IMG/VR virus record: IMGVR_UViG_3300047567_000058
Location: 16,405-80,404 of that record
Source of the DNA: a virus
Taxonomy: Duplodnaviria; Heunggongvirae; Uroviricota; Caudoviricetes
Reading direction: 5' to 3' (one strand)
DNA: 64,000 nt
The notes under the pieces are model-generated. The model ran no database searches, had not been told where the DNA came from, and saw nothing but the letters and a program-made list of their open reading frames with translations. The position numbers and the translations under genes were made by a program. Below, piece after piece: positions 6,576 through 43,169 of this stretch (positions within the stretch are counted from its first letter, which is position 1; each line of letters begins with the position of its first letter).

Positions 6576-6893
6576 ATGATCGTACTAAATGAAAACCAGG
6601 CATACGCCGTTCTAAAAGATCTCGGGTTCGACCAGGAAAGATGGACCCCGGAAGAATATCTCATCAATGAGGGAATCTCATATGAGTGCGGATATTACGA
6701 CGGCAAATTCCAATATCGCTTCGGCGGAGACACCGAGCACTACATCGCCGAGAGCTGCGTCAACGTGGGAATAAAGCCATATGCCGATCAAGGCATTCTC
6801 AACGAAAGCTCAGATGATGACAATCCGATCAAGGCGAAGCTCAAAGCCATCATGGCCGCAAGGGCTGCCAAGAAGCCATCCGTTGCTAAGTAA
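6576..6893 (+). CDS. hypothetical protein (105 aa)
   Basis: Internal ATG (M27 of track ORF 6498..6893) downstream of the terminator; the upstream part of the track ORF overlaps the terminator. Confidence 0.5.
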   Translation: MIVLNENQAYAVLKDLGFDQERWTPEEYLINEGISYECGYYDGKFQYRFGGDTEHYIAESCVNVGIKPYADQGILNESSDDDNPIKAKLKAIMAARAAKKPSVAK

Positions 6894-8032: not shown

Positions 8033-8765
8033 GTGCCGTACGAGATACGATATCGAAACTCTGACCTGAGGCGCCTGCGGGGACTTGCACGCCGTTCTCA
8101 AGTTTGGAAATCTTGAATATTCCGTGTTGAGAGAGTTCCAAAAGCAAGTCCCAGGCGAGGCGCCTGAGGGAAGAAGCGAACATGCGCTTCAGGCATTTGA
8201 ACTGCTGAGAGCCTCAGCGATTTACTACGACACAGACTTAATTGTGTATCTCAAGCATGCTTTCACATGACAGCGTATCCCGATCGGGCCCGCGTGTGAA
8301 CTCCTCCACGAAACAGAAATAGTTGCTTGGCTATGTCTGTAGAGCGGGGAGTTCTTCGCGGGCCGGACGGGATATCGCTATTTGGTCTGAAGCTTATCTG
8401 TTGACGCCTGGGGATCCGGATATTTAACGAGGCGTCTGTGCCCGACGTCAAAGATCCGGATCGCATGGTCGTCATCAGATAGCGTAAGGCTTTAAGCGAT
8501 AGCTTATAGTACAACCGAGGATGCCCCGGTATTTTCCATGCTTGTGCAAAAGGCATACGATAATTGAAAGACAGATGCGTCCCAGTCCAGAGGCTGTTGT
8601 GTTTGAATCGGCGTTCGCTCCGTGCGCAAAACGCCGGTTCAAGCCGAAAGCTTCTGGATTTGGGAAAGCGTCATGTTTGAGAATCATATCGCGCAATCGC
8701 AGGAATCCTGCGCAAAACTATGCCTTATTATTTCTAGACGATGCGCCTTTAATAATTAGAAATGA

Positions 8766-16330: not shown

Positions 16331-16411
16331 GATTATCACTCCTACAGGAATATGATACGCCTGCGACGGCGCATAAGCAAAGAAAACAGATCTGTCTTCA
16401 GACCTGTTTTG

Positions 16412-24022: not shown

Positions 24023-24154
24023 TCAGTCTTTCTGGACTTCGGGGTCCGGGCTCATCGCCAGATCCATGGCGTCCTCGAATTCCTGCGGGTCGATCGTGGG
24101 ATCCTGAGATTCCGCTTCCTGGCCCATCGACTTCAGCTTGTCTTGGTCGTTCAT
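24023..24154 (-). CDS. possible small acidic protein (43 aa); its ATG overlaps the nrdD stop (ATGA)
   Basis: MNDQDKLKSMGQEAESQDPTIDPQEFEDAMDLAMSPDPEVQKD*. Confidence 0.2.
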   Translation of the reverse strand: MNDQDKLKSMGQEAESQDPTIDPQEFEDAMDLAMSPDPEVQKD

Positions 24155-27100
24155 AATCGATTCCTCACGCGTTGGAGCGCGATTTTATCCATCCGGCGAT
24201 CTCCGAGGCGTTTCTGTAGACGTCGAAACGAGGCCCCATCCGGGACGATCATCGTCGGGGCGGCGGTGATGCCGAACGCGTTGACCTGGTCGAGATGCGT
24301 CGACGCGTCGATGTTGTCGTACTTGATCCCGGCTTTGTCGAGCAGCATCTTCGCCATCTTGCAGTTCGGGCACGTCGGGTTGGTGAACAGCATCAGATGA
24401 TCGACTTTGGGCGCCTCGGCGGAAATATTTTTATTTTCCAGGGAGCAGGCGTTGCATCCGTCATGGACTTCCTCTTTCGAGGAATCGTATTCCTTGCGGT
24501 CATGGAACTCCTGCATCTTGCCGGCGTTCCAGTTCTTGAGCGGGCGGTAGTATCCGGTGATGCGGCTGTAGACCTCGGTCTCCTTGCCGCAGATCGGGCA
24601 CTTCCATTTCTCGCCGACGATGTAGCCGTGGTCGGGGCAGATGGAATAGGTCGGCGACATGGTGAAGTACGGCAGCTTGTAGTTCTCCGCGATCTTGCGG
24701 ACGAGCCTCATGCACGAATGCCAGTCGGGCAGACGCTGCCCGAGGAAGGCGTGGAAGACGGTACCGGAGGTGTATAGGGTCTGGAAGCGGTCCTCGACGT
24801 CAAGCGCGCTGAACATGTCGTCGGTGTATCCGACGGGGAGGTGCGAGCTGTTGGTGTAGTAAGGCGTCTCGCCGGATTTGCCGGCGGTGATGATGTCGGG
24901 ATACATTTCCTTGTCGTGCTTGGCGAGGCGGAAGCAGTTGTGCACCAGCACCGCGTCGTCAACGCCGCCGCTGATGAAGAAGTTGTGGTTGCCTTCGACT
25001 TCGAGATCGTAGACGTCTTCCCTCTCGGTGAGGTATTCGATCTTGACGATCTGATGGTTTGGAAGCAGGCCGGCATGCTTCAGGCGCGATTTGACGAGCG
25101 AGTAAGTGTAAGGCTCTCCGAGCTCTTTGGCGATTTCGCCGATGCTCTTGTTTTCCTTCCACTTGGCGATTATGGCGTCAGTCGAGCATTCAGGCATGTA
25201 TCTCGAATACTGCTCGAAGCTCTTTTTCTTATTCCCTTCAGACATCTTTCTGCGGGTGTCTTCGGATGCCATGTTCTCAAGGAACTTAGGATACCATTCG
25301 TCTTTGGTTTCCCTCTTCGTCTCGGAAATAAGCTCTTTTGATTTTTCGGTGTGATGCTTGCCGAAGAATGGGTTGGCGGAGCCGTCTACGCATCTTACAA
25401 AATTACGGCCTTCGTCATGCTCATGCAGCCGGCGGTGATCGGCATCCGACATTATCTCAAGGTTGTCTTTGGCGTTGTTGGTCTTGTCGAAATCCTTATG
25501 ATGGACTACGAATCCGTCTGGGATCTTGCCATAGTAATATTCAGCTAGAAGACGATGCATCGGGAAAGATCCTTTATTTTTGCCAAGTACGCATTCGACA
25601 TTGCGATACGTTTCTCCATATGCTTTAGAATTCTTAGTATAAACATGGCACGCGAATAATCTGTCTCCGACTTTTAAGGATCCGGCTTCGACGTAATCGA
25701 TCCAGCATTTGCGACTGGGACCGCATCCGGTGACGAACCGCTTCGCCATCTTATGGTTAGGCGTGACTTTGACGCTGTCGCCCATTGGAGAAGGTGATCT
25801 TCATCACTTCGGCGTCTTTCTTCGTCTTCCAGCAGTCGACGAGCTTCTTGAACTCGACTGAGTTGGTTTCGGCGTTGAATGACATGATGCCGATATTTTT
25901 ATTTTTATCGGCGATGATATCGTTGACGGTCATACGGCCTTTATCAGTCCAAACATTGGTGTCTCCTGAAACGCACGTTGACTCCGCCGGCGTCGCTTCA
26001 AGGTTGAAAAGTGTCGATGGATACTGGACTTGGTAGTCAGATAGCCGGTTGCGCATGTGATTGAGGACCTCGACGGTGAAGTCCTGGGCGTCCTTGTGCG
26101 TGAGGTCGTCTTTCAGCCATTTGGCGTTGAGACAGGCTTCGTTCATGCCGACGAGGCCGATCGTCGAGAAATGGTTCTTGAACGCGGTTTCGCCCAGATA
26201 GCGCTTGGTGTACGGATAGAGGCCACGGTTATAGAGGTCGGTGATTGTTCTTGCGCTTGATCTCAAGCGAGCGGGCGGCGATGTCCATCATGTGGTCGAG
26301 CCGGGCGTAGAAGTCGTCTTTGTCGGCGGCGAGGTAGCCGATGCGCGGCATGTTGATGGTGACGACGCCCGATACTGCCAGTGGATTCTCCGGCTCCGAA
26401 GAACCCGCCGTTGCGCTTGCGCAGTTCGCGAAGATCGAGGCGAAGACGACAGTTGTGAGTCATGAGACCTGATGCCAAAGCGAAAACATGATCGTCGCTG
26501 TCTATCTCCAAGCAGTAAAGAAAATCACTTGATGCGTCATTGGTTTTCTCTATCGACACTATCTTGTAATAATTGTAGGAATCGTCTTGATCGAAAAGCT
26601 CGCCATAGCGCTCGCGATCCGGGAAGTCAATTCTGTAATTCGGCTTGTCGGATAAGCGACTTTCTCTGTTGTCGACGTAGTTTGACAAAGCTTTGTGCCC
26701 CATGGATGCCAAAAGTTTCATCACATCGTTTTTCATCGTTTCCGATGAAGTGTATATCCTCTTTTTCTCCTTCGACCCATCGCTGGCTCTCAAACCCGAT
26801 ATGAATCCTTCTTTGAATTCGTTCGAAGCATTGAAACAACGATTGGAAAGCTTCTTCGTCAAAGCATCGCCATCGATGTATTCCGACACAATGGCGAACG
26901 GGTTCTTATCGACTCTGACATATTCCACTTTTTCGGAAACCGTCGTTTTCACCGGATAGCCTACTCTGTTCCAGAAAGCCGTGAGGCGCGAAACCGTGTC
27001 TTGATCGACATCGACATTAAGAGAATAAACAACTGCTCCTTCGTCGTGACTTCCGTCTCCTGCGTAAGCACCTATCGCAAAACCGAGGTCGGAATCACCG

Positions 27101-29969
27101 AGCCTTTCCGTCTCAATCGGGGTCTTGTTGAAAGGAAGCCAGTCGCCGACTTCGAGATCGCTCGCTTTCAACGTTCCTCTATCCTTTGTCGGCTGAAGAT
27201 GGTTTTCGCCCATTTTGACGGTCGTTCCGTTCGAAAGGACGATTTTGAAAACCGGTGTCATCGGCATCTGAACCGGATGGCCTGACACCCATTTATGCCC
27301 ATTCCAGAAAAGATAGTTCGTTTTCTTGAGATTGTATCCATCATAAAGAGTTCCTATCTTTCTGACGACGATTCCATCACGCGAGTTTTTGACGAGAATC
27401 TCGGTGTCTGACGTCAAAGGGCACATACTCCTGCAATCTTGAGGATTCATCGAACTATTTATGTAGTTTGAGAAATACGGGATGCCGTATTTGGCCGCCA
27501 TCTCAAACAGCAAACGGTTGTTCTCGGTATCGGACCAGTCGAAGCCTTTGGTGATGGAGTAAGTCGGAATCGGGTATTGGAAGCCGCGCCCATTGGCATC
27601 GCCTTCGATCATCGTTTCGATGAAGGCCTTGTTGACCATGTCGGCTTCTTTTCTGGCATTCGCCATACGTGAAGTCCTGCATCTTGCCTCCGACAACGGC
27701 AGGCAGGTTCTTCAGATCGTCAGGAACGACCCAGTCGAGCGTGACGTTCGTGAATGGCGCTTGGCATTGTCCTGAAATGAAAACGCATCCGTTCTTTCTG
27801 AAAATGGCTGTTCCGGCGTCGTCGTTCGGACACCATACAAGACCGTCATATTGAATGGCTTCCCTATGTTTTGGCTGGATGTTTTTGACGTCATGAACGC
27901 GGACGTAGTTCGCTTTACTCGTCTTTTTCTTGAAACTCAAAAATCCGGCTCTCAATGCTATTTCTTGAAGCCTGTCCGCTATTTCGTCATTGTCGTACTG
28001 AAGTTTGAATTTTTCGAAATCTCCGTCGAAACTCGACCACGTTCTAAGGAACAGCTCCGATTGCCTTCTGCTCATTTTGACGAACTTGTCATCAATGGCT
28101 TTTTTGGTTCCGCCAACGAGTTCGAAAATCTTTCTTGCTGAGTCACCGAAGAAGACGTATTTATTTACTGGAGTATCAAACCCGCCTTTTACTTCGCAAA
28201 GCGAAAAAGCTAGAGAAAGCGAATTTGCCACATTTGCGATGTCGGCGTTTCCTGGCCTTTTCGGAGATTTGTATATCGTTATTTTGTGAATCGATCCGTT
28301 TCTTACGTCTATGCTTCCATCGGTATAGACCATCGCCGCCAGTTTTATCTCGTCATCGCTCAGCCCGCATTCAGGCAAATCGTTGCCCGAAAAAGATGCT
28401 GGGAGGTAATAAGAAGTCTTGACACTGAAAATGTCAGACGAATGTTTGATTTCGTATTCGTTCAAATTGAATTTTTTGACAAGAATACGGTGCTCAGGTG
28501 TGACGGTTTGCTCGTATCCGGCTCCAAGATAGCGGTGCATCTCGCCTTTGTACGGTTTCACGACGACTTCGTTGACCTTTTTGGTCGTCAGCGTCCCATT
28601 GTCCCAAACGTAAATGTCATCGCCTTTTTTAAGCTGATCGTATTTCTTCCATCCACCGGTCGACAGCACTTCGGTGTCCGTGTCGACACAGCCCCATCTG
28701 GACGGGGTGTTGACACCGAAGATGAAGCTCTGAATGGCTTGCTTAACTTCTTTGTATGACAGATTGTCCTTCTTGACGAACGGGGCCAGGTACGTGTCAA
28801 AGCTCGAGAACGCCTGAGCACCCGACCATTCATTTTGTAGGCAATTTCTCGCACAGATACTGGTGTCTGATGATTCCGAATCGGTTACGAAGAATGCGTG
28901 AAAATCGTTATGGACGGTTCCGCAATAAACATCGGATGTCTGATTGATAATTCTCTTAGATACGATTTTCATACACTCTCCGGTGTCTTTGCAAGTGAAT
29001 TTGTACACGTACATAACCTTTGAGTTGTATTGAAGGACGTCGTCGTCTTCGGTTAAATCCTGCGCCTCAACCCATCCACGGTTAAGCGTATAGAATTTAT
29101 GGTCAAGAGTGCATTTGATCTTATGGCCGTCTTCGGTCGTGAGCTCAATGAGCTGACTAACGGTTCTCGTCTTATGCAAGTTATCCATCTTCGACGCGAC
29201 GTATTTGCCGGTGTTGGGATCGAATGACCTGACCATGAATTCTGTCTTTCCTGAATCGAGCATCTCGCGGATGCTGTGATTAGTCCCATCGGCGAACACG
29301 ATTCTGGTATCGTCGGTGAAGCAGCCCAAGAAATTGACCATCTGGTTGCAGAGAGTCGAAAGATGGCTAGCCGGGGTAGACGCGATCTTGCCCGGGACTC
29401 CGCCGAGGCCTTCGTTGATCAACTGCTTGAGCGACCAGCCTGCGCAATAACCGTTCAATAAGCTAAGGTCATGCAGGTGAAGATCCGCGTTTCTGTGCGC
29501 GTCGGCGATTTCCTTGTCGTAGATGTCGTTGAGCCAATAGTTGGCAGTGACCGCTCCGTTGTTCGAGAGCACGAGCCCTCCGAGCGAGAAGTTGACGGTT
29601 GCGTTTTCCTTGACGCGCCAGTCGTTCTGGCCGAGGTAGTCGTCGACGAGCTTCCCGTAGTTCAGCCCGTTTCTCATCTGGGCGTGCTTCTCGCGGTATC
29701 TGGCGTATGCCAAAGCGGTCTGCTTGTGGCCCGTGTCGATGAGCGCGAGCTCGACCCCGTCCTGGATGTCTTCGATCCCGACGGAATTATTTTTTTATTT
29801 TCCCGGAGAACTCGTCCAGGGCCTTCTCGGCGACGATGCTGGCGTTCTTCTCGCCTTCCGCGTCATGGGTCTCCTGGCAGGCGCGCGCAATGGCGCGTTC
29901 GATCTTCTTGATATCGAAATCCTCGACGCTATCGTCTCTTTTGACTACTTTCAGCTCGGCTGTTTCCAT
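24151..29969 (-). CDS. nrdD: anaerobic (class III) ribonucleoside-triphosphate reductase NrdD with N-terminal ATP cone, four inteins and a fused C-terminal glutaredoxin-like domain
   Basis: ATP cone (VVKRDDSVEDFDIKKIERAI). NrdD core blocks (LYNRGLYPYTKRYLG, NHFSTIGLVGMNEA, TGSIGVVTINMPRIG). Glycyl-radical C-terminus RITGYYRP with a CPICG zinc ribbon, then a CPNC thioredoxin-fold domain. The reading frame passes through track ORFs 29787-29969, 27503-29713, 26263-27696, about 26270-26370, 25757-26266 and 24151-25785. Confidence 0.85.
24937..25975 (-). mobile_element. nrdD intein 4: about 330 aa with an HNH homing endonuclease
   Basis: Starts CVSGDTNVWTD. Block B is GDSVKVTPNH. HNH motif HHKDFDKTNNAKDNLEIMSDADHRRLH. 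Block F is DVYDLEVEGNHNFFISGG. Ends AVLVHN, followed by Cys. Confidence 0.6.
26452..27423 (-). mobile_element. nrdD intein 3: about 324 aa with a LAGLIDADG homing endonuclease
   Basis: Starts CPLTSDTEILV. GFAIGAYAGDGSH and EGFISGLRASDGS match LAGLIDADG. Block F is FLYCLEIDSDDHVFALASG. Ends LMTHN, followed by Cys. Confidence 0.6.
27767..28690 (-). mobile_element. nrdD intein 2: about 308 aa with a LAGLIDADG-type homing-endonuclease domain
   Basis: Starts CVDTDTEVL. LAAMVYTDGSI and LRAGFLSF match LAGLIDADG. Ends ...NGCVFISGQ (C-terminal Gln), followed by Cys. Confidence 0.5.
28844..29323 (-). mobile_element. nrdD intein 1: mini-intein of about 160 aa with no endonuclease domain
   Basis: Starts CFTDDTRIVFADG. 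Block F is DVYCGTVHNDFHAFFV. Ends ...SICARN, followed by extein Cys. Confidence 0.55.
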
Positions 29970-30269
29970 GTGGTGTTAACCTTCCTCTAAAAAAATGGTG
30001 TAATGCTTTGTTCGGGGCCGGATCGGTTTATATCCAAGACGGTTTCTTCTTCGAGAATCGTCCTCTTATGCGAAAAAAAATATTTTCCAGAAGCCCTTCC
30101 CAAAAAAAGAAACGCATGCATGATATTGTCATTCAGGCGCTCCTTTCTTTTGCGCGGACTCATCATAAACCACGGCGGGGAGATAGTCAAGAAAACGATT
30201 GGCGGATATGACCGTACCAACCGCTTCTTCACCGCTTTGGCTTAGACGACAATGGCGCATGAGAAGATA

Positions 30270-34544: not shown

Positions 34545-35234
34545 TTATTTCCCAGACTGCTTGGCTTTGCGCTCGGCATTCTGGACGTATCGCTTGCGGA
34601 GCTTAGACACGTCGTCGCTGTTGAAGACGAGCGGCTTGCCATACTCCATGACCGCGTCGGCCAAACCGTATTTGACGGTCTCTTCGGCGGACATGTTGTT
34701 GTCGCGCTGGGTGTCGGCGTTGATCTGCTCATAGGTCTTGCCGGAGTTGTCCGCCAAGAGATTGAGGCATGCGTCATTGAGCATGTGCATCATCTTCTGG
34801 CTGGCATCGGCGTCGAGGACGGTCTCCATTTCGTTCTGATGATACGTGCGGCCCTGATGGATCAGGACGAACCCGTGTTTCTGAACGAGCCGGTAATCGC
34901 CGCTCGAGAAGATGACCGCCGCCATCGAGGCGCAGAAGCCTTTGCAGACCGTGATGATCGGCGCTTGGATCTCCATCATCTGATCGACGATGGCGAGCCC
35001 TGCCGTGATATCGCCTCCGCCCGACATGATGTCGAGCTCGATAGGCTTCTTTGGATCTTTCTTGCTGAGGTTCTTGAGCTCCGCGATGACGAGGCTGGCG
35101 GATTGCTCCGACACCTCGCCGTAAAGCAGAACAACACGATCCTTATACAAGGAAGTCGCGATAGAATCTTGGAATGTGACGGCCTGCTGTTCAGGCTCGT
35201 ATCCTTCCATAACTGGCTTTGACATAACGATCAC
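34545..35234 (-). CDS. clpP: ClpP-family serine protease subunit
   Basis: Catalytic Ser in CKGFCASMAAVIF, His in VLIHQG, GGGDITAGLAIVDQM. Stop overlaps the upstream gene by 4 nt. Confidence 0.75.
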   Translation of the reverse strand: MIVMSKPVMEGYEPEQQAVTFQDSIATSLYKDRVVLLYGEVSEQSASLVIAELKNLSKKDPKKPIELDIMSGGGDITAGLAIVDQMMEIQAPIITVCKGFCASMAAVIFSSGDYRLVQKHGFVLIHQGRTYHQNEMETVLDADASQKMMHMLNDACLNLLADNSGKTYEQINADTQRDNNMSAEETVKYGLADAVMEYGKPLVFNSDDVSKLRKRYVQNAERKAKQSGK

Positions 35235-37525
35235 TTACCTTTCTTGGCCGTGGCTTTGGACGCCGTGGCCAGCTTAGACGCCGCGAAGAGCTTAGCCGTT
35301 TCGGAGATCTGGCGCTCATATGCGGTCTGGATCTGGCTGCGAACAGCCTCGTCAAGCCCGCGGGCTCCTTTGTTCTCGATGTCGGCAGCGACCTTGATCG
35401 CGTCGATGTCTTCTTTGGTGAAGGCCACTTTGACCTTGCCTCCGGAGAGCGTCTCATACATCTCATGGTATCTCTTGATCAGCGAGTCGAACACGCGATC
35501 GTCAAGACGGTTGAAGATGACCACTTTGTTGATTCTCGCCTTGAACTCAGGCGGGAAGTACTTGGTGATCGCCATCTCAGCGTCGTGCTTGTCGTCCATG
35601 ACCTTGATCTCGCCCATGCCGCTCGTATTGGTCGATTCTGAATCGTATCCGAGGTTTGTCGTGAACACGATGATGGCGTTGCGGAACGAAACCTCGTCGC
35701 CATGAGAGTCATTCACGATGCCGTCGTCGAGCATGCTGAGCAAGGTCTTGAGCACTTTCGGATGCGCCTTCTCGATCTCATCGAAGAGAACGAGCGAGCA
35801 CGGATTGCGCTTGATGCTTGCGAGCAGGCCGGTGTCGTCATCATAGCCGACATAGCCAGGAGCGGAGCCGATGAGCTTGTTGTAGCTGATCTCATCCGCG
35901 TATTCGCCCATGCTCAGTTTGATGAGCGCATCGGACTTGCCGAAATAGTTCTTCGCGATGATGCGGGCGGATTCGGTTTTGCCGACTCCGGTCGGTCCGG
36001 CGAAGAGCATCGAGAGCATCGGCTTCTCAGGATTGTACAAACCAAGATCGATCGTTCTGAGAGACCAGGCGATCTGATTGATCGCTTCGTCTTGCCCGAG
36101 CAGCTTCTCATGCAGCGCTTTCTCGGTCTCGGTGGCATTGTCCTTCGAGACGTGGATTCCGTATTGCTGCGTGATGGCGTCGACCAAATCGTCTTTGGTG
36201 ACGTTCTTGTCTGCCGGATGAGTGACCTTCGCATAAGAATAAGCGAGGTCCATCATGTCGATCGACTTATCAGGATTTGCTTTGTTGAGCGAGTATTTCT
36301 TCGACAATGTCGCGATCTCGCTGACGATGTCGTCGGAGAGCGTCATGCCATAGAATTTGTCTTTGTCGCCGCGGATGCCAAGCAGGATGGTCTTGGTGTC
36401 TTCGTCAGACGGCTCTTTCACATGGATCTCGCGAAGCCGGCGGGAGAACCCGCTGTCCTTGGAGAAGTATTTGTGGAAATCGCTGTCGGTGATCGTCATG
36501 ATCATTGACACGCTTCCATCGGAAAGATACGGCTTGATGATGCTGATGATCGGAGATCCCATCTCTGCGATGGTGAACAGATACTGAGCCTCATCGACGA
36601 ACAAGATCGAATTATGGTCTGCGGCCGCGGCATCGAGAACGACGCCAAGGCGGCCTTCGATCATGCCGGGATAGGTTCCGCCAGCGGAGATCTTATCGAG
36701 ATTGAGACGATAGATATGCTTGACGTTGATGGCGGAAGGGGCTTTGCCAGCATTGATGCGCTGAGCCAAGTCATACACCGCCTCGGTCTTTCCGACGCCG
36801 GCCATGCCAGTGAGCACGACGCTGCGTTTGTTCTTTCCGATCAGGCCGACCGAGATCGACTTGATGAGATCGTCTCCGCCGACGATCGAATGCGGACAAT
36901 CGGCTACGAGAGCGTTGATGTCGGTGAGGAAATCGGTTTTCTCGCAGATATCAGCGATTCCTTGATTGCTCGATTTGGTCTCGGCGTCGGGCTTGAACAT
37001 CTCGATGAATTCATCGTACATGCTCTGGACTTTCTCCGGCCGCTTCGTATCGGTGAAAGCCTTGATGAAGATCTTTCTGAGATTGAACGGAGCTTTGTCG
37101 CTGTCGGCGAAGAGCTGGATCATGAGATTCGGAACCCCAAGCGTTCGGCTCTCTTTGATCGCTTGGCGCTGAAGCTTTGAGACAATGGTCTGGATATCGT
37201 TGTCAGAGCTCATCTCAGGATCGGTGCTTGGATCGATGATATGGCACTTCGGATAGATGCTGAACATCGCCGTGGCGAAAGCGAGATCCGACATTCCGTA
37301 CTTGGAAAGGATCGCTTGCATTTTGCCGAACAGATCGCTGTATTTGTCTCCGGATCCGGAGTGCTTGTTTAAGAAAGCCATGACTCCAAGATAAAGATGC
37401 TGAGTGCCGATCGTGGTATGGCCATAATCGCACGCGAACTTCACCATGAATTCGTTGAAGATGCTGTTGACATCGTCATCGATCGGAGAGGTCATGATGC
37501 TATCGTTATTGTCTTTTTTATTCAT
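35231..37525 (-). CDS. Clp/Hsp100-family AAA+ ATPase (ClpA/ClpC/ClpB-like, two AAA modules, N-terminal Clp_N-like region), 764 aa
   Basis: AAA-1: GKNKRSVVLTGMAGVGKT and ILFVDEAQ. AAA-2: LFAGPTGVGKTE and LVLFDEIEKAHP. Translationally coupled to clpP. Confidence 0.8.
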   Translation of the reverse strand: MNKKDNNDSIMTSPIDDDVNSIFNEFMVKFACDYGHTTIGTQHLYLGVMAFLNKHSGSGDKYSDLFGKMQAILSKYGMSDLAFATAMFSIYPKCHIIDPSTDPEMSSDNDIQTIVSKLQRQAIKESRTLGVPNLMIQLFADSDKAPFNLRKIFIKAFTDTKRPEKVQSMYDEFIEMFKPDAETKSSNQGIADICEKTDFLTDINALVADCPHSIVGGDDLIKSISVGLIGKNKRSVVLTGMAGVGKTEAVYDLAQRINAGKAPSAINVKHIYRLNLDKISAGGTYPGMIEGRLGVVLDAAAADHNSILFVDEAQYLFTIAEMGSPIISIIKPYLSDGSVSMIMTITDSDFHKYFSKDSGFSRRLREIHVKEPSDEDTKTILLGIRGDKDKFYGMTLSDDIVSEIATLSKKYSLNKANPDKSIDMMDLAYSYAKVTHPADKNVTKDDLVDAITQQYGIHVSKDNATETEKALHEKLLGQDEAINQIAWSLRTIDLGLYNPEKPMLSMLFAGPTGVGKTESARIIAKNYFGKSDALIKLSMGEYADEISYNKLIGSAPGYVGYDDDTGLLASIKRNPCSLVLFDEIEKAHPKVLKTLLSMLDDGIVNDSHGDEVSFRNAIIVFTTNLGYDSESTNTSGMGEIKVMDDKHDAEMAITKYFPPEFKARINKVVIFNRLDDRVFDSLIKRYHEMYETLSGGKVKVAFTKEDIDAIKVAADIENKGARGLDEAVRSQIQTAYERQISETAKLFAASKLATASKATAKKGK

Positions 37526-37552
37526 AAAGATTGTGCCGTCCTTTCAGGTGGC

Positions 37553-38005
37553 TCAGATGCCGTCGTCTCCATCGAAATTGCCAAGATGGAAATTGGCTGT
37601 GTCATCTTGATTCTGCTGAGCTGCCGCTTTGGCTTCGTCTTCCTGGGCTTTCTTTTCAGCCTCGGTGATCTCGGCGTCGGTGAGCGCATGCATCCTCTGG
37701 ATGATATCGTTGAGTTTGGCATCCGCCGCATCGGCGGTCAGTTCATTGCCATCCTCGTCTGTGGCCGATCCGTTCTCAATGTCGCATACCCCGGTGGCCA
37801 ATGCCCCGAGGTCAGAGATTCTCACGGCGATCTTCCCGTATTCGGAAGTCAGGCCCTGAGACTGAGCGTATTTCATCAAGTCTCCAGTTAATTCGGACAT
37901 CTTTCCGGCGATGGCGACTTTAGCGTCGGTGATCTTTTGCTCGAAGTTTCCATTGTTGTCTGGAAGCTCGTAATCCTTCGATTTGTCAGATGGTGCGAAT
38001 GGCAT
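37553..38005 (-). CDS. hypothetical acidic protein (150 aa)
   Basis: ORF track; RBS aaaggagg. Confidence 0.45.
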   Translation of the reverse strand: MPFAPSDKSKDYELPDNNGNFEQKITDAKVAIAGKMSELTGDLMKYAQSQGLTSEYGKIAVRISDLGALATGVCDIENGSATDEDGNELTADAADAKLNDIIQRMHALTDAEITEAEKKAQEDEAKAAAQQNQDDTANFHLGNFDGDDGI

Positions 38006-38018
38006 AATTGTGCCTCCT

Positions 38019-38183
38019 TTAGTCTTTTATTTTTTCGACAAGCGGATCATCATCGACGACATCGTTGGATTCTGCATGAGCCAGGTCATCGTTCGTAACC
38101 AGGTTTTTTGCTTGACTGGGGTTGTTCGCACGCACATAAACTGTTTTTGTCTGTGTGTAATATGTAATTGCGTACATTGGCAT
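38019..38183 (-). CDS. small protein (54 aa, MPMYAITYYTQTKTVYVRANNPSQAKNLVTNDDLAHAESNDVVDDDPLVEKIKD)
   Basis: Strong RBS aggagg 9 nt upstream of the ATG. Preceded by the conserved leader hairpin. Its stop TAA overlaps the RBS of the next gene. Confidence 0.45.
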   Translation of the reverse strand: MPMYAITYYTQTKTVYVRANNPSQAKNLVTNDDLAHAESNDVVDDDPLVEKIKD

Positions 38184-38190
38184 TGCTATC

Positions 38191-38233
38191 GCCTCCTTTC
38201 CGATGGAACTATCGTTTCACCTAAATCTTATCG
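38191..38233 (-). promoter_or_regulatory. conserved 5'-leader hairpin element, copy 1 (aggtgaaac-gata-gttccatc followed by ggaaaggagg)
   Basis: One of three near-identical roughly 35-nt elements placed immediately 5' of the SD of consecutive genes. Confidence 0.5.
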
Positions 38234-38832
38234 TAATCGTCATGACCTCGGTCGATTGCCTTAACTAATTTGGCATCGATTTCCTGTACCTCCTTTGTGA
38301 TTTCGTTATCAGCGATGCTCTTGCTGATGGCCGCAAGCGGTTTATGTTTCAGATTGGCGAGTTTGACCCGTTGGATTTTCAGGCCGAACCCACACCCATC
38401 GCCGAACATGACGCTGGCTTTATCTTTTGTCAAAAGGACACGATACAGGTCGTCGCAGTTTTGGATGACATCGGTCTTGTCGGGCGTCAGCAGGCCGCCA
38501 TCGACATCGCAGTATCCGTCAGCTTTCGCGATGAAGACCAAACGCAACGCGCGCTTAGCCAGTTCTTCAGTCGTGAAAACAACGGAATCGGTAAAGCAAC
38601 TCGGGCCGTTGAAATTATCGGTGTCGGCCCAGTCTTTCATGATGAGTTTGTAGCCATAGCCAGGGATAAAATCCCTGAATTTCAGGCCGACGGCTTTGGC
38701 CCATTTCAGATCGGGCGGATTGCCTGCATCGATTTGGAACTTTTCGTTGGCAGATTCCATCTTTTGGCTAAGTTGCTCAAGCGCTTCGGAATCATCTTCG
38801 GCATTGACTGTGGCAGTAATTGTGATTTTCAT
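38221..38832 (-). CDS. hypothetical protein (203 aa); N-terminal 45 aa are paralogous to small gene 38838..39008
   Basis: MKITITATVNAEDDSEALEQLSQKMESANEKFQ aligns with MKYTLTITINAKDKEEVADKLANKIEIANSEFQ. ATG at M22 of the track ORF. Confidence 0.5.
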   Translation of the reverse strand: MKITITATVNAEDDSEALEQLSQKMESANEKFQIDAGNPPDLKWAKAVGLKFRDFIPGYGYKLIMKDWADTDNFNGPSCFTDSVVFTTEELAKRALRLVFIAKADGYCDVDGGLLTPDKTDVIQNCDDLYRVLLTKDKASVMFGDGCGFGLKIQRVKLANLKHKPLAAISKSIADNEITKEVQEIDAKLVKAIDRGHDDYDKI

Positions 38833-38837
38833 AAAAT

Positions 38838-39008
38838 CTATTTGCCCTCCTTGGCATGACGACGCGCAAAATGGAAACCGGCTCTGTGTAGCCATTCTGA
38901 ATCGGGTAACTGGAACTCAGAGTTGGCGATTTCAATTTTGTTCGCTAATTTATCGGCAACCTCCTCCTTGTCTTTGGCGTTGATAGTAATAGTTAAGGTA
39001 TATTTCAT
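38838..39008 (-). CDS. small protein (56 aa), paralogue of the N-terminus of 38221..38832
   Basis: RBS ggaaagga, preceded by the conserved leader hairpin. Its C-terminal codons (aaggagggcaaatag) form the RBS of the next gene. Confidence 0.45.
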   Translation of the reverse strand: MKYTLTITINAKDKEEVADKLANKIEIANSEFQLPDSEWLHRAGFHFARRHAKEGK

Positions 39009-39015
39009 AAATTTT

Positions 39016-39050
39016 TCCTTTCCGATGAAACTATCGTTCCATCTAAATTA
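39016..39050 (-). promoter_or_regulatory. conserved 5'-leader hairpin element, copy 2 (agatggaac-gata-gtttcatc followed by ggaaagga)
   Basis: Same element as copy 1. Confidence 0.5.
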
Positions 39051-39227
39051 AAGCTGTTCGTATTTGTGTCTGATACAATAGTCTTGAATACGATTGAAAT
39101 CTTCTTCAGAGACTGTTGCTTTGATTGCATTGACGTAAGCATTAACGACACTCGGTTCGTTTGAATATCCATAGCCTTCGTAATCGACAAGGAACGACAT
39201 GTCCTCGTAGATATAGACGACGATCAT
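39048..39227 (-). CDS. small protein (59 aa)
   Basis: Internal ATG (M29 of the track ORF) after RBS aaaggagg. Confidence 0.4.
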   Translation of the reverse strand: MIVVYIYEDMSFLVDYEGYGYSNEPSVVNAYVNAIKATVSEEDFNRIQDYCIRHKYEQL

Positions 39228-39228
39228 A

Positions 39229-39582
39229 CTATTTGCCTCCTTTCTTTTTCGGCTCTTTGGTGACCATATCGACTTCTTCCCCATTAACGAAACGCACAGG
39301 GAAGACGTCATATTTCAGATCGCTATGTGAGTCGGGGTTATAGACGCCCACGATGGCGATTCCGGTGAGTCCTTTCTCAAGCGCCGCCGCCTGATAGTCA
39401 TCCGTCAGGATATAGCATGGTTTGAATCCTTCCTTGCGAAAGTAAATGACAGCGTTGATTACTCCGTCGTCAATGACCTCATTTTCGACTTCGGCGTCTT
39501 GCGCGTAGAAATCGAATCCATGATAGCCATTTGCCATGTTCGCGGTTTGCGCAAGCAGGTATTCGATGCATTTTCTATCCAT
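39229..39582 (-). CDS. hypothetical protein (117 aa)
   Basis: ORF track; preceded by the conserved leader hairpin and RBS ggaaagga. Confidence 0.45.
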   Translation of the reverse strand: MDRKCIEYLLAQTANMANGYHGFDFYAQDAEVENEVIDDGVINAVIYFRKEGFKPCYILTDDYQAAALEKGLTGIAIVGVYNPDSHSDLKYDVFPVRFVNGEEVDMVTKEPKKKGGK

Positions 39583-39589
39583 AAGTTTT

Positions 39590-39625
39590 TTCCTTTCCGA
39601 TGAAACTATCGTTCCATCTTATTGA
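39590..39625 (-). promoter_or_regulatory. conserved 5'-leader hairpin element, copy 3
   Basis: Same element as copies 1 and 2. Confidence 0.5.
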
Positions 39626-39840
39626 TCATCGTAATCACGATAACCTTCTCCCATCTCTTTCCAAAATTCCTTGGTCTTTGACGGAGAACACTCTTTAGCG
39701 GATTCGAACTCCATATCGTTTTCTTCGTAGTCGGGCCCATTATAATGGTCGGAAGCGTCTCCGTCGTTGCCGTCGATGAAATCGCCATCATTGGCTTTCT
39801 TTTTAGCAGACGGAGGCCGTCCAGGAAACGGCAAAGGCCT

Positions 39841-41532
39841 TTAATAGCCTCTGCTGTTCCCGTGGATGCTCTTCCATTCAGGATTCGGATCGGATGACAT
39901 CGACAGAACTTGGCCGTACGGATTCTTAACCGAGAGATTGTCGGAATCATCCAGAACGACCCAGATGTTCTTAGAGGTCTTCGGCTTGTCGATCTCGTCG
40001 TCGCCAAAGCCATCGGTGAAGTAGATGAGCAGCGCGTCTTGAAGGCGGCCGCATCTCGGATCGTCGAACCATTTCGGGTCGGAGTATTCGTCTTTGACGC
40101 CGTTGATCCATCTGATGACCGGCATGTAGCTGGTTCCGCCGCGCCCGCTGACTTCCTTATGGATGTCGCCGGGCTTCTTCATCGTGTAGATGGCGCCGAT
40201 GGCGGCATCGCATTCGATGACGATGATCTCGGATTCATAGCTCTTGCACAAAAGGGCGATCTCGTTGAGGAAGTATGAGATTGCTTCGTCAGAGACAGAC
40301 CCTGATGTGTCGATGGCCACGATGATCTTGATCTTGTACTTCGGAAGGCGTCCAGGCAAGTCTGGGCGATAAGGCTGCCGGCGATTGAGCCGCATTCTCG
40401 TCGCTCTGTACGGAACCGGAAGGGTCCCGAGCATGTTCTTGATGATCTTCCACAGAGAGGTTCTTGGCTTCTTGAGGAGATCCTCGATCGACGCGACCAT
40501 ATCGGCTGGCATGAGACCTCTGAGACGAGACGACGAATCATTGTCTTGCTCAAGGTACTTCTCCCATGCGGTCTTGACGCTGTCTGAGATGTTGTTCTTG
40601 ACGAGGTCGGGATCGCCTTGGGTTTCCCACTGATGAGTAGGATGCCCGTTCGAGTTTCCTGGGGCTGAGATCCCATTGGGATCGCCCTGATCTTGGCCTT
40701 GGCCTTGACCGGAGTCGCTTTGTCCCTGTCCTTGGCCCTGACCTTGTCCTTGGCCTTGCCCGGGTTTCTGCTGATTTTGGCCAGGCTTCTGAGGCTTGCG
40801 ATGAGAATGATAGAAATCGTAATAGTATTTGAGGTCGGATTCCTTCTGAGCGGTGTACCCGACTTCATGCTCCATATCGGACTTCGTATAGTACCCTTTC
40901 GGGATCGAAAGCCCGCTGCCGGAAGTCGGATCCATCTTCGCCTTGAGCGAAAGATCGTGGATCAGCATCTCGGAGATGGACGCGCTTGAGGCTTTCTCAA
41001 GCTCATTGTGGACGCCTTGGTCATTGGCGCGGTTGATGTTGAGATAGTCGAGAGGATGCTGCATCGTGATCTTCGTCAGTTCGGCGACGATCAGCGTGCG
41101 GGCTTCCTTGATCGTGTAGTTGATGATGTAAAACGGATTGATCTTGAGCTTCATGATGACGTTGGACACGTCGATGTCGACGAAGCCTTGCTGGCTGAGG
41201 TCGAACTTCATATCCATGTTCATCAAAAGGATGCCGAAGTAGCAATCTTCTGAGACGACAAGCGACGCCTTGATCCAGTCATAGACCGGAAGGAACGTGT
41301 CCTCGATGACGGGGATGAACGACTTGTCGATGTCGAATTTCTGCGGGCTGGCTTCGTCGTTTAGCTGCTGGCTCGCCATGACTCCTGGCGTCGAGGCCGC
41401 TATCTTAGCCACCATCGCAGCTGCAGACTGATCGCCGTCTTCGGATGGATGAGGCTTCATTGCAGCCCGGATCGCTTCTTGGCAATCTCGGTATTTCTCG
41501 GCTACCTGAGCCGAGGTTAAATCTGATGACAT
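39841..41532 (-). CDS. vWA-domain protein (CobT/NorD-like partner of the MoxR ATPase), with a (QG)n low-complexity linker
   Basis: C-terminal vWA with MIDAS (VAIDTSGSVSD). QKPGQGQGQGQGQGQGQSDSGQGQGQDQG repeat. Start at M7 of the track ORF with RBS gaaaggg. Confidence 0.6.
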   Translation of the reverse strand: MSSDLTSAQVAEKYRDCQEAIRAAMKPHPSEDGDQSAAAMVAKIAASTPGVMASQQLNDEASPQKFDIDKSFIPVIEDTFLPVYDWIKASLVVSEDCYFGILLMNMDMKFDLSQQGFVDIDVSNVIMKLKINPFYIINYTIKEARTLIVAELTKITMQHPLDYLNINRANDQGVHNELEKASSASISEMLIHDLSLKAKMDPTSGSGLSIPKGYYTKSDMEHEVGYTAQKESDLKYYYDFYHSHRKPQKPGQNQQKPGQGQGQGQGQGQGQSDSGQGQGQDQGDPNGISAPGNSNGHPTHQWETQGDPDLVKNNISDSVKTAWEKYLEQDNDSSSRLRGLMPADMVASIEDLLKKPRTSLWKIIKNMLGTLPVPYRATRMRLNRRQPYRPDLPGRLPKYKIKIIVAIDTSGSVSDEAISYFLNEIALLCKSYESEIIVIECDAAIGAIYTMKKPGDIHKEVSGRGGTSYMPVIRWINGVKDEYSDPKWFDDPRCGRLQDALLIYFTDGFGDDEIDKPKTSKNIWVVLDDSDNLSVKNPYGQVLSMSSDPNPEWKSIHGNSRGY

Positions 41533-41600
41533 TTCTGATACCCTTTCCAAATCGGGGCGCCCTCAGGATTGTTGGTCCTGGGGGCATTCGGCGATTTTAT

Positions 41601-43169
41601 TTATTTTTTCGGATTGGTCATCGCGTCGAGCTTGTCGATGCTTTCGCAGGACGAGTTGACGCCGTTGATCAACGCCGAAGCGAGCCGCGCGCACTTGCCG
41701 TCGTCGAGCTCGTGGCGGAGATCGCGGCCTTCAGCGGTGTGCTTGCCACGGACGTAGCGATAGAGGTCAACCTCATTCGCGCGGTCGAGGGACTTGACGA
41801 ATTGGATGAACTGGCCGTCGGCGCCCAAGACATTGTCGAAGAATTTCGGATTTGCCTTGCGGGCTGCGAACCAAGCATCGTAGTTGTCTGCGATGTAGTT
41901 GACGATGCTGCGGCTCATGATCGTCTTCGCCATGAAGCGCATCTGAGAGAGCTTCATCATGGTCGATTTGTCGATCTCTTTGCTGGCGCCGGTGAGAACC
42001 TCGTTCGGATTGATGCGGGAGCTCTTATCTTGCAAGCACTTGAGAATCGAGTTGCCGGCGGTGGTGCCGATCTTGCCGAGGATCATGGTCTCGATATCGG
42101 CGTCGAGGCTTTCCTTCTCTTCCTTCGTGAAGAGATTGCTGGACTTGACCAGATCGTATCCGCTGATGATGTTCGAGCAGATTTCGTGAGACCGTGGAGA
42201 CGGATCCATGTTCTCGGTATCTTCGGTGCCGGCGTCTTTGACGCAGAACACCGTGTTGTTGTCGTTCTTGGAAAGGCCGGAGTTGGCCGCGGTGAGCGCC
42301 TGGAGATATTCCAGGTTCATGCCATGGTCAAGCGCCCACTGGCACCATTTCTCGAAGTCGGGGTTGACCTTGATCTTCATGAAACGGTCGAGCTGCGCAG
42401 GGTCCATCTGGTTGACGGAGAAGCTCGAGTTCTGAGAGCTCGGGTTCTGGGCGGCGATGATGGAGACCCACCACGGGAATTCGTAGCCGTTGACCTCGCG
42501 GTTGAGGATGACGTTCATCAGCTCCTTCATGGTCTCTTGAGGAGTGCGGTTGATTTCATCGAAGAACAGAATCACCGGCTTGATGTCTCCGGATTCGATG
42601 AGCTCGCGCTTGACTTCAGGAAGGAGATCCTCGCCGAACTGATGCTTATTCTGATCGCCTTTGACGGCAGCTTCTTCATTGGTCCATTTGCTGACCACTT
42701 GATAGACGTGCCCTTTCGTATCGAAAACAACGGTGTCTCCGGCATGCGCGATGACCTTGGTAGTATCTTTGCCATCGGGGCCTTTGAAAGTATCTGTGAT
42801 GTCTTTTTCGATAATGCGAACGCGGCCGCCGAGGAAGCCTTCTTTGGTGGCGTGAGAATAGATCTCGTCTTGGAGCTTCATGACCGAATAAGTGACGTGA
42901 TACGGAACGAATTTGAATTTGTCTTCATTGGTTACCGGATCGTGATAAGCAAGCGGAAGGCCGGTGATCTCGCCGTCCTTGAGGGTGCCGCCTTCAATGG
43001 TGAATCCGAATCCACCCATTTCCTTGGCGGCTCCAGAGCAGATCTGCGATTTGCCGATGCCCTGAGCTCCTGAGATCAGCGGTGTGATCGCTAATCCTTT
43101 GTGTCCGTCAACTATGTTGAGATAGCTGGCGATTTTGGCGATTCGTTTCGCCTGTTCAATGTTTGCCAT
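41601..43169 (-). CDS. MoxR-family AAA+ ATPase (CobS-like)
   Basis: Walker A GAQGIGKS, Walker B ILFFDEINR, sensor IIAAQNP. Confidence 0.65.
   Translation of the reverse strand: MANIEQAKRIAKIASYLNIVDGHKGLAITPLISGAQGIGKSQICSGAAKEMGGFGFTIEGGTLKDGEITGLPLAYHDPVTNEDKFKFVPYHVTYSVMKLQDEIYSHATKEGFLGGRVRIIEKDITDTFKGPDGKDTTKVIAHAGDTVVFDTKGHVYQVVSKWTNEEAAVKGDQNKHQFGEDLLPEVKRELIESGDIKPVILFFDEINRTPQETMKELMNVILNREVNGYEFPWWVSIIAAQNPSSQNSSFSVNQMDPAQLDRFMKIKVNPDFEKWCQWALDHGMNLEYLQALTAANSGLSKNDNNTVFCVKDAGTEDTENMDPSPRSHEICSNIISGYDLVKSSNLFTKEEKESLDADIETMILGKIGTTAGNSILKCLQDKSSRINPNEVLTGASKEIDKSTMMKLSQMRFMAKTIMSRSIVNYIADNYDAWFAARKANPKFFDNVLGADGQFIQFVKSLDRANEVDLYRYVRGKHTAEGRDLRHELDDGKCARLASALINGVNSSCESIDKLDAMTNPKK

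Follow-up and report, generated by a model that had tools for sequence, protein, structure and literature searches.

Little is understood about the ways in which phages acquire, lose and trade small accessory genes, a good number of which prove to serve host takeover or anti-defence, and least of all in uncultured jumbo phages. The locus considered here raises a concrete form of that question: what is the role of a short leader that recurs before neighbouring units of small genes? It lies in a 64,000-nucleotide (nt) stretch of viral DNA (hereafter the window; positions 16,405 to 80,404 of IMG/VR record IMGVR_UViG_3300047567_000058), in which a hairpin that runs directly into a Shine-Dalgarno (SD) sequence occurs three times. 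This hairpin-SD element is real and non-random, and its main significance is as the junction element of a horizontally exchanged cassette array. Our favoured reading, to which we assign a probability of roughly 0.6, is that of a portable stop-hairpin-SD junction which acts as an expression signal and also supplies the homology for cassette shuffling.

The element follows the consensus GRTGRAAC-GATA-GTTYCATC-GGAAAGGA, with exactly three copies in the window, all on the minus strand and each situated between one stop codon and the next start codon. Its 28-nt motif, GRTGRAACGATAGTTYCATCGGAAAGGA, is found at 39591-39618, 39016-39043 and 38194-38221 and nowhere else in the window, and these three real occurrences compare with 0 in 100 dinucleotide-preserving shuffles; the shared leader proposed in an earlier, sequence-only reading of this DNA is thus borne out. 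A covariance model run without filters over the whole 64 kb recovered the same three copies at 55-62 bits and no others, the next-best match (16.7 bits) being the reverse strand of the three copies themselves. Additional copies, for which that reading had proposed a search, were not found by the model in the window or in ~10 kb past each end (~80 kb altogether), nor elsewhere in related contigs, so that the element is no regulatory signal of the genome at large.

Identity between copies 1 and 2 is 100% over 33 nt, with copy 3 at 79%. The former two fold into an 8-bp stem (including one G.U pair) with a GAUA loop at -9.6 kcal/mol (z -2.9 and -1.9), whereas in copy 3 an A.C mismatch at pair 5 reduces the stem to 4+3 pairs, with a stability no greater than that of shuffles (z 0.01); the full 8-bp pairing reported earlier for all three is present in copies 1 and 2. 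Three of the eight pairs are G-C, and the sequence after the stem is CGGAAAGGA. No spacer separates the stem end from GGAAAGGA, the start codon follows 7-10 nt past GGAAAGGA in the window copies, the distance from GGAAAG to AUG is 9-13 nt in every copy, and the intergenic span from stop to start at the element is 35-40 nt. The invariant 3' flank is the phage's normal SD; GAAAGGA serves in this capacity for at least 8 other genes in the window, and GAAAGGAGG is complementary to the 16S rRNA 3' end of the Firmicutes type.

On the minus strand, the gene order is a 71-amino-acid (aa) open reading frame (ORF), hairpin copy 1 (HP1), genes A and B, HP2, genes C and D, HP3, genes E and F, and then the gene for a ClpB-like ATPase. 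Each hairpin therefore heads a gene pair (A, 117 aa, with B, 59 aa; C, 56 aa, with D, 203 aa; E, 54 aa, with F, 150 aa), in place of the three consecutive genes that had been described. The components are as follows.

39619-39834, minus strand: 71-aa ORF (TTG start only, without an SD), the 3' part of a 93-aa gene.
39619..39807, minus strand: remnant of the 93-aa cassette gene, 5'-truncated, at the left side of the insertion.
39591..39621, minus strand: HP1 junction element, with the stop TAA of the 93-aa gene remnant at 39621-39619.
39618-39599, minus strand: HP1 hairpin, GATGGAAC-GATA-GTTTCATC, with the SD flank GGAAAGGA at 39598-39591 and the gene A ATG at 39582.
39229..39582, minus strand: gene A, 117 aa, an ORFan, whose terminal codons (...KKKGGK*) hold the gene B SD.
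39048..39227, minus strand: gene B, 59 aa, with relatives L008_6816 (58%) and L007_11963 (41%).
39016..39048, minus strand: HP2 junction element, directly 3' of the gene B stop TAA (39050-39048).
39043-39024, minus strand: HP2 hairpin, with the SD flank at 39023-39016 and the gene C ATG at 39008.
38838..39008, minus strand: gene C, 56 aa, a short paralogue of the D N-terminal domain.
38221..38832, minus strand: gene D, 203 aa, with its start ATG at 38832.
38192..38223, minus strand: HP3 junction element, in which the gene D stop TAG (38223-38221) overlaps the first stem base.
38221-38202, minus strand: HP3 hairpin, GGTGAAAC-GATA-GTTCCATC, with the A.C mismatch at pair 5.
38201-38192, minus strand: HP3 extended SD, GGAAAGGAGG, with the gene E ATG at 38183.
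38019..38183, minus strand: gene E, 54 aa, whose stop TAA overlaps the gene F SD.
37553..38005, minus strand: gene F, 150 aa, a conserved backbone gene outside the insertion.

Within the pairs, coupling is of two kinds. At the E-to-F junction the stop lies within the SD (gacTAAAGGAGG), and this is the only one of the three junctions where it does so. At C-to-D, for which the same arrangement had been claimed, the SD (AAGGAGGG) falls within the last codons of C (...AKEGK*) and the stop lies between SD and ATG; A-to-B (AAAGGAGGCAAATAGtATG), with its SD within the last codons of A, is of the same type and had been overlooked in that reading. The proposed paralogy of the 56-aa product to the N-terminal part of the 203-aa protein was confirmed, with 21/52 residues identical (40%; E = 1e-11) between C and the first ~50 residues of D. 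BLASTP showed no resemblance of E to the 93-aa protein (E = 36), despite a similar-looking N-terminal pattern.

Two further features of the coding sequences adjoining the junctions were observed. A second recurrent junction type, AAAGGAGG(G)CAAATAG, constitutes the next gene's SD 1-5 nt before its ATG (window 39225-39243 and 38830-38852, minus strand; L008 ~6800-6816; L009 ~2630-2643), and the unrelated proteins A, C, L008_6596 and L009_2312 all end in ...K(G/E)GK-stop at such sites. Moreover, the C-termini of D (...RGHDDYDKI*) and of the 93-aa protein (...EGYRDYDDQ*) are alike, with 79% identity over 19 nt (window 38230-38248 and 39628-39646), so that the repeat upstream of copies 1 and 3 reaches ~25 nt into otherwise unrelated coding sequence.

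Is this arrangement a fixed part of the genome? The array is presence/absence-polymorphic and differently composed among near-identical strains of one jumbo phage. Among the 23 contigs that encode exactly the window's F protein, the strain represented by L031 has an identical F protein and 98-99% identical flanks, with the stop of the upstream VWA-domain gene leading directly to F; i.e., it displays the empty site. Relative to this strain, the insertion is:

38036-39795, minus strand: accessory insertion of ~1.76 kb.

Its left junction lies after ...ggacggcctccgtctg, and its right junction is in an A-rich/SD stretch just before gene F. The 93-aa gene remnant is 100% identical to the C-terminal 62 aa encoded by intact genes in L007 (9378-9659) and L009 (989-1270); since the 71-aa ORF is the 3' part of that gene, the left insertion end is an illegitimate junction inside it. 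L038 bears an alternative array (hairpin, 95-aa gene, D, hairpin, E), and the arrays of L032, L033, L036 and L037 resemble that of the window. In the closest VWA relatives (59% and 38% identity), the order is MoxR, VWA, one small gene, ClpB and ClpP, with the lone small gene between the VWA and ClpB-like genes of L002 and L006 being an F homologue (45% identity). Conservation in related phages, the lack of which the sequence-only reading had named as refuting its case, gives a divided result: backbone relatives and one strain of the same phage are without the elements because the whole array is absent there, and the elements are conserved wherever cassettes occur.

Gene E is itself polymorphic. 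Against a 99.98% identical contig, the window differs by three substitutions in 20.6 kb, two of them within the 165 nt of gene E (T7A and the nonsense change E38*), and the truncated E38* allele recurs in four samples (L030, L033, L036 and L037). This suggests relaxed or diversifying selection, e.g., escape from a host defence that senses E.

The mobility of these genes becomes apparent in other genomes. D has extremely few homologues. A word-indexed search of 5.8 billion proteins returned 6 clusters of D homologues (11 with a profile), and an exhaustive HMMER search over 1.84 billion representatives returned 9; the D-family contigs are L007/L010, L008, L009 and L018-L021, on each of which the hairpin element occurs one to four times, with three paralogues of D present together in L007. 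L007, L008, L009, L018 and L021 share only cassettes with the window, at 80-99.5% nucleotide identity. In all, the element precedes at least 8 unrelated families (A, C, D, E, and genes of 93, 95, 72 and 124 aa), and one and the same upstream gene with its hairpin can be followed by various genes: the 93-aa gene and hairpin lead into the 95-aa gene or into E, and the 93-aa remnant and hairpin into A.

The window's 39807-39591 is 99.5% identical to L009, and this block ends exactly after GGAAAGGA; the homology block with L021 begins at the 5' edge of HP2, that with L018 inside HP2, and that with L038 at the AAGGAGGGCAAATA junction. Because homology blocks start and stop in the hairpin-SD element or in AAAGGAGG(G)CAAATAG, these conserved junctions are where cassettes join. 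What bounds the mobile cassette units of this hypervariable array is the element, and the joins of units fall within it, a point that the sequence-only reading had missed. The locus captures cassette turnover in natural populations, by way of an empty site, two alternative arrays, a truncated entry-point gene and cassettes of up to 99.5% identity elsewhere. Of the earlier suggestion of an early or anti-defence-like array, the part that stands is that of a small, accessory, hypervariable array of ORFans; searched against Pfam, PHROGs and PADLOC, cassette proteins, that of gene A among them, had no match, including none to a known defence or anti-defence family. The AlphaFold model of D was of low confidence and gave no fold assignment. 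Separately, the D-family profile also detected P0133 (789 aa) and P0135 (970 aa), each with 6-9 tandem repeats of PSDTNWASSAGFHFDSSGAL that correspond to PDSEWLHRAGFHF / PPDLKWAKAVGLKF, the motif seen in the N-terminal domain of C/D; this motif may be a structural repeat that passed, in one direction or the other, between this family and a fibre-like protein.

Is the hairpin itself under selection? The 22 further element matches in other loci comprise 16 distinct 40-nt sequences and 9 distinct hairpins, all in the same orientation and with the same placement relative to stop, SD and ATG. In these loci the element directly follows the upstream stop and continues into GGAAAG(G/A)A, with the exception of one copy in L018. 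Across the 16 distinct sequences, 98.3% of pair cells are paired, and compensatory changes are present at two pairs: pair 8, the closing pair, is C-G, U-A or U.G, and pair 7 is A-U or G-C. Upstream of gene C, the copies in three loci have three differently compensated stems. The observed covariation score was matched in only 1/500 shuffles, by a measure that is inflated by the relatedness of the sequences. The loop is variable (GAUA, GACA, AACA, AAAC, AAUC), with position 2 alone invariant, and the stem sequence is largely kept too (GATGRAAY/RTTTCATC), as is, almost without variation, the CATC-GGAAAG joint. As the stem is preserved by compensatory changes, a selected hairpin in single-stranded nucleic acid is likely.

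Regarding the exceptional copy, at L018 ~1385-1404 the hairpin (GATGAAATAACAATTTCATC) is without the GGAAAG flank and lies ~60 nt from the next gene; it is followed by a different hairpin with a T-run and then by a different SD, and it looks like a decayed or recombined junction. Other hairpins abutting an SD were observed in the 59%-identity relative L002, in which an unrelated hairpin (GGGGAAATA-AAA-TATTTCCCC, running into GGAAGGAGG) precedes the ClpB-like gene (8668-8708) and a bulged 8-bp stem precedes the gene F homologue (8176-8210). A hairpin abutting the SD may be a general intergenic style of this phage group.

Could the element simply be functionless, a leftover of tandem duplication of a gene with its leader, or hitch-hiking intergenic DNA? 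Duplication does occur here, as seen in the C/D paralogues and in the three D paralogues of L007, and the identity of copies 1 and 2 over 33 nt would fit a recent copy or gene conversion. We nonetheless regard this explanation as very improbable, given that the element stands before so many unrelated protein families, that its stem is maintained via compensatory substitutions, that its placement with respect to stop and SD is invariant in 22/22 copies, and that the sole copy lacking GGAAAG, in L018, is also no longer beside a start codon.

The favoured reading, that of a portable junction with a dual role, would operate as follows. An upstream stop, an 8-bp hairpin and a consensus SD (GGAAAGGA) would stand at the head of each unit, a unit being one small accessory gene or a few. 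At the RNA level, the hairpin in the polycistronic mRNA, just 5' of the ribosome-binding site, would constitute a context-independent expression signal by keeping the SD/AUG region unpaired with any upstream coding sequence; after processing, a 5'-proximal hairpin with a bound ribosome might furthermore protect the downstream cistrons, by analogy with STAB-SD and RNase Y processing. At the DNA level, ~30-40 bp of near-identity would be a substrate for homologous recombination, within a genome or between co-infecting phages, and recombination at the element would give rise to the observed insertions, deletions and swaps. Opening the SD-AUG region was computed to cost 3.13 kcal/mol in the native sequence, against 4.26 once the 5' arm is shuffled and 3.58 once the hairpin is removed, the native cost being below the arm-shuffled one in 13/14 contexts; the calculated insulation effect is modest.

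Several observations weigh against this reading of the element as portable junction. At the RNA level, (i) the role of the hairpin is one that we infer, (ii) the predicted insulation is small and inconsistent when compared with plain hairpin deletion, and (iii) the stem of HP3 is weakened, yet this variant is fixed in every strain of this phage seen. With respect to selection on structure, (iv) covariation is limited to 2/8 pairs (5 cells), among related sequences; (v) the sense strand folds with 5 wobbles and 2 mismatches and the antisense strand with the reverse, a 5:2 preference that is not significant; and (vi) the L007 copy upstream of gene C is conserved at 21/28 positions, less than the adjacent gene, so that sequence conservation of the element is not uniformly high. 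As for the cassettes, (vii) the insertion has its left end inside the 93-aa gene and away from any hairpin, and (viii) every other element-bearing locus was found via C/D homologues, and the association of the element with the C/D family is therefore biased by the route of discovery.

A different role at the RNA level had been proposed in the sequence-only reading, namely that the hairpin is an mRNA operator for a trans-acting translational repressor (RegA-like) or a target of an endoribonuclease. Conservation of much of the stem sequence beyond what pairing demands, the near-invariant CATC-GGAAAG joint, a zero spacer between stem and SD that is ideal for steric occlusion, a helix retained through compensatory changes, and the presence of a C/D-family gene in every element-bearing locus would all accommodate such an operator. 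Known hairpin operators, however, usually read the loop, and five tetraloops occur here with only position 2 invariant; the GGAAAG flank is accounted for by SD function; sites number only three in ~80 kb; and the C/D co-occurrence stems from how the loci were found. The sites bound by RegA are AU-rich, unstructured and located at the start codon, and an RNase III site was rejected because that enzyme requires about 20 bp, for which the present stem is too short. None of the cassette proteins was found to contain an RNA-binding or nuclease domain, and no candidate hairpin-binding protein was found among the proteins screened, which represent part of a genome of at least 219 kb. Nothing specific points to a RegA-like repressor or an RNase, and we consider the operator explanation unlikely. 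A re-initiation relay through a mini-ORF in the hairpin (ATG-AAA/GAA-CGA-TAG) was rejected as well: the GACA-loop copies are without an in-frame stop, and one copy has ACG for ATG.

The identity of the phage bears on whether the element might instead act as DNA. Products encoded in the window include a split multisubunit RNA polymerase beta-like protein, a family-B DNA polymerase and an intein-bearing NrdD, as well as those of the MoxR-VWA-...-ClpB-ClpP block. The nearest cultured relatives of the RNA polymerase subunit are from Listeria LPJP1, Staphylococcus S6, Yersinia phiR1-37 and Bacillus PBS1/AR9 (34-40% identity), while a megablast search of GenBank phages with window 36000-42000 gave no match. 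Contigs of 136.8 and 219.2 kb encode proteins identical to those of the window, indicating an uncultured jumbo phage of at least 219 kb. It is an AR9/PBS1-like phage with RNA polymerases of its own, and from SD usage and the nearest cultured relatives we infer a probable Firmicutes host.

In such a phage, the element could conceivably work as double-stranded or extruded DNA, i.e., as a promoter or operator, or as the site of a dedicated integron-like recombinase or nuclease. It is an imperfect palindrome with swappable half-sites (HP3 equates to HP1 with its arms exchanged), it is placed exactly at cassette boundaries, its folding-strand preference falls short of significance, and the phage has its own polymerases. 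Arm changes are, however, compensated on the opposite arm, which a palindrome read by a protein would not need; the element is strictly co-oriented with the genes and fixed relative to SD and ATG; none occurs elsewhere in ~80 kb of the genome; and one insertion end lies off the element. An integron attC site, weighed for its AAC...GTT core, was rejected, as the element is far too short and without the L/R box layout and no integrase is nearby; indeed, no integrase or recombinase was found next to any array. No sigma-70-type promoter turned up on the minus strand when 37400-40000 was scanned; GATAGT, the hexamer most like a -10, lacks a -35 at 16-18 bp and is altered in the loop variants. An intrinsic terminator was likewise dismissed, the stem being not G+C-rich, with no U-run on either strand and no entry in the terminator scan. 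Rfam 15 was searched over the window at the gathering threshold and over 37400-40000 at E<=1, with 0 matches in either case, and no tRNA or tmRNA was found. AR9 promoters follow an early consensus of AAATATATATTAT-6N-G and a late one of AACA-6N-TA/G (PMC5312081), and the element fails both. We consider a DNA-level site of this kind quite improbable.

A related and decidedly doubtful possibility is that hairpin plus GGAAAG forms the recognition site of dedicated machinery that travels with the cassettes, with a C/D-family protein as candidate, in an integron-like or self-regulating system. If true, ORFan cassettes would be subject to site-specific capture, excision or RNA processing, and not to passive homologous recombination.

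A last alternative concerns mimicry of a host CRISPR repeat, in the form of a solitary repeat unit or RNA anti-CRISPR that would titrate Cas6-type or Cascade proteins. The short 5' flank, ~20-nt stem-loop and 8-nt 3' tail ending in GAAAG (~32 nt in total) do recall the layout of class-1 CRISPR repeats. The tail is, however, fully accounted for as an SD, no promoter lies directly upstream, and three copies reside in one array where a mimic would be solitary. In addition, the motif is unmatched in IMG/VR, in the JGI metagenome set and in GTDB, the latter scanned with an exact pattern over 185,579 bacterial and archaeal species at one genome per species; these collections are evidently without element-bearing contigs. 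IMG/VR likewise yielded no relatives when searched with the VWA protein and with the D-family profile, and tblastn of D against phages gave no match. Racr elements do occur in phages near anti-defence genes (PMC10651486), but on balance we hold this explanation to be extremely unlikely.

Some observations concern the genome beyond the array. At window 35231-43169 (minus strand), a MoxR-type AAA ATPase, a VWA protein (DUF2201), gene F, a ClpB-like double-AAA ATPase and a ClpP protease form a module that is conserved in the distant relatives L002 and L006 and that may be a phage-encoded unit for protein remodelling and degradation. The nrdD region (window 24151-29970, minus strand; anaerobic ribonucleotide reductase) contains two inteins and an HNH domain; JGI calls a single 1932-aa product, and in the window nrdD is split over several overlapping ORFs. 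Compared to a near-identical contig, the window has one extra A in a homopolymer at 29796, which could be a sequencing error or a frameshift. Finally, 48979-50604 encodes a DUF2828/DUF7788 protein termed 'RNA-binding' by PHROGs.

To return to the portable junction, its motif would, if the reading is true, provide a search handle for hypervariable accessory arrays in metagenomic phage genomes, and the element would be a candidate natural ribosome-binding-site insulator for Firmicutes-type systems.

How does the element compare with known systems? A small hairpin at or next to a phage ribosome-binding site calls to mind the operators of T4 RegA, T4 gp43 and the MS2/PP7 coat proteins, at which the bound protein blocks initiation. 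For gp43 and the coat proteins, operator recognition relies on particular bases in the loop or bulge, whereas here the loop varies; the RegA target is unstructured, AU-rich and overlaps the start codon, whereas here a structured hairpin stands upstream of the SD.

With 5' stabilisers of Firmicutes the element shares a GAAAGGAGG-type SD that is complementary to the 3' end of 16S rRNA, and the character of a structured intergenic operon element; by this analogy, it offers a plausible way of setting different cistron levels in one transcript. STAB-SD of cry3A is a strong SD that serves as a barrier to RNase J1 in Firmicutes (PMC4113751), and in saePQRS, structure-guided processing by RNase Y stabilises the downstream part of the operon (PMC5449607). 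The sae guide structure is 24 bp (PMC5449607), compared with a stem of 8 bp here, and STAB-SD starts no translation itself, unlike the present SD. RNA anti-CRISPRs (Camara-Wilpert et al. 2023, PMC10651486) are also hairpins of ~30 nt in phage intergenic DNA near accessory genes; the element differs from them in having no promoter of its own, in being part of a coding operon, in doubling as a ribosome-binding site and in its three copies.

Closer in position are the SAS and ESAS motifs of Cluster K mycobacteriophages, for which a 13-bp consensus, GGGATAGGAGCCC, is placed 3-7 bp ahead of the start codon (Pope et al. 2011, PMC3203893). There too, a conserved SD-containing sequence just before the ATG of some non-structural genes is shared by different families, an inverted repeat is often directly upstream, and the upstream stop may fall in the motif; a role in translation initiation was suspected (PMC3203893). 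In ESAS, arms of 17 bp are separated by spacers of 4-13 bp, departures between the arms speak against RNA pairing, and the authors favoured a DNA-binding site (PMC3203893), whereas the 8-bp arms here covary. The sequence here, GGAAAGGA(GG), is moreover unrelated to GGGATAGGAGCCC, three copies in one mobile array contrast with 11-19 SAS over the non-structural half of a genome, and a role in cassette exchange is not described for SAS/ESAS.

The nearest counterpart in terms of proposed function is PeSL (promoter-early stem-loop), the mobile regulatory cassettes of T4-like phages (Arbiol et al. 2010, PMC2839356; Comeau et al. 2014, PMC4122927). Both are short repeated intergenic motifs that reach from the upstream stop, via a stem-loop, to the downstream SD and start; both lie in hypervariable regions before ORFans, where the motif delimits the indels and replacements that distinguish close relatives; and for both a dual role has been proposed, as expression signal and as homology for modular shuffling. 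Recombination between PeSL copies is reported to yield mini-circles, and the PeSL stem-loop is viewed as a terminator or attenuator (PMC2839356, PMC4122927). Here, the stem is 8 bp, A/U-rich and of near-fixed sequence, without a G/C tract or U-run, making a terminator role unlikely. The host phage is of the jumbo AR9/PBS1-like kind and not T4-like, three clustered copies per genome region compare with ~50 per PeSL-bearing genome, and the sigma-70-like -35/-10 and the AT-rich UP region are missing. Since the sigma-70 promoter that defines PeSL was tested for and is absent, the element is not a PeSL; by analogy, it may work like a PeSL without the promoter. If this is true, the principle of the mobile regulatory cassette reaches beyond T4-like phages and does not require a promoter.

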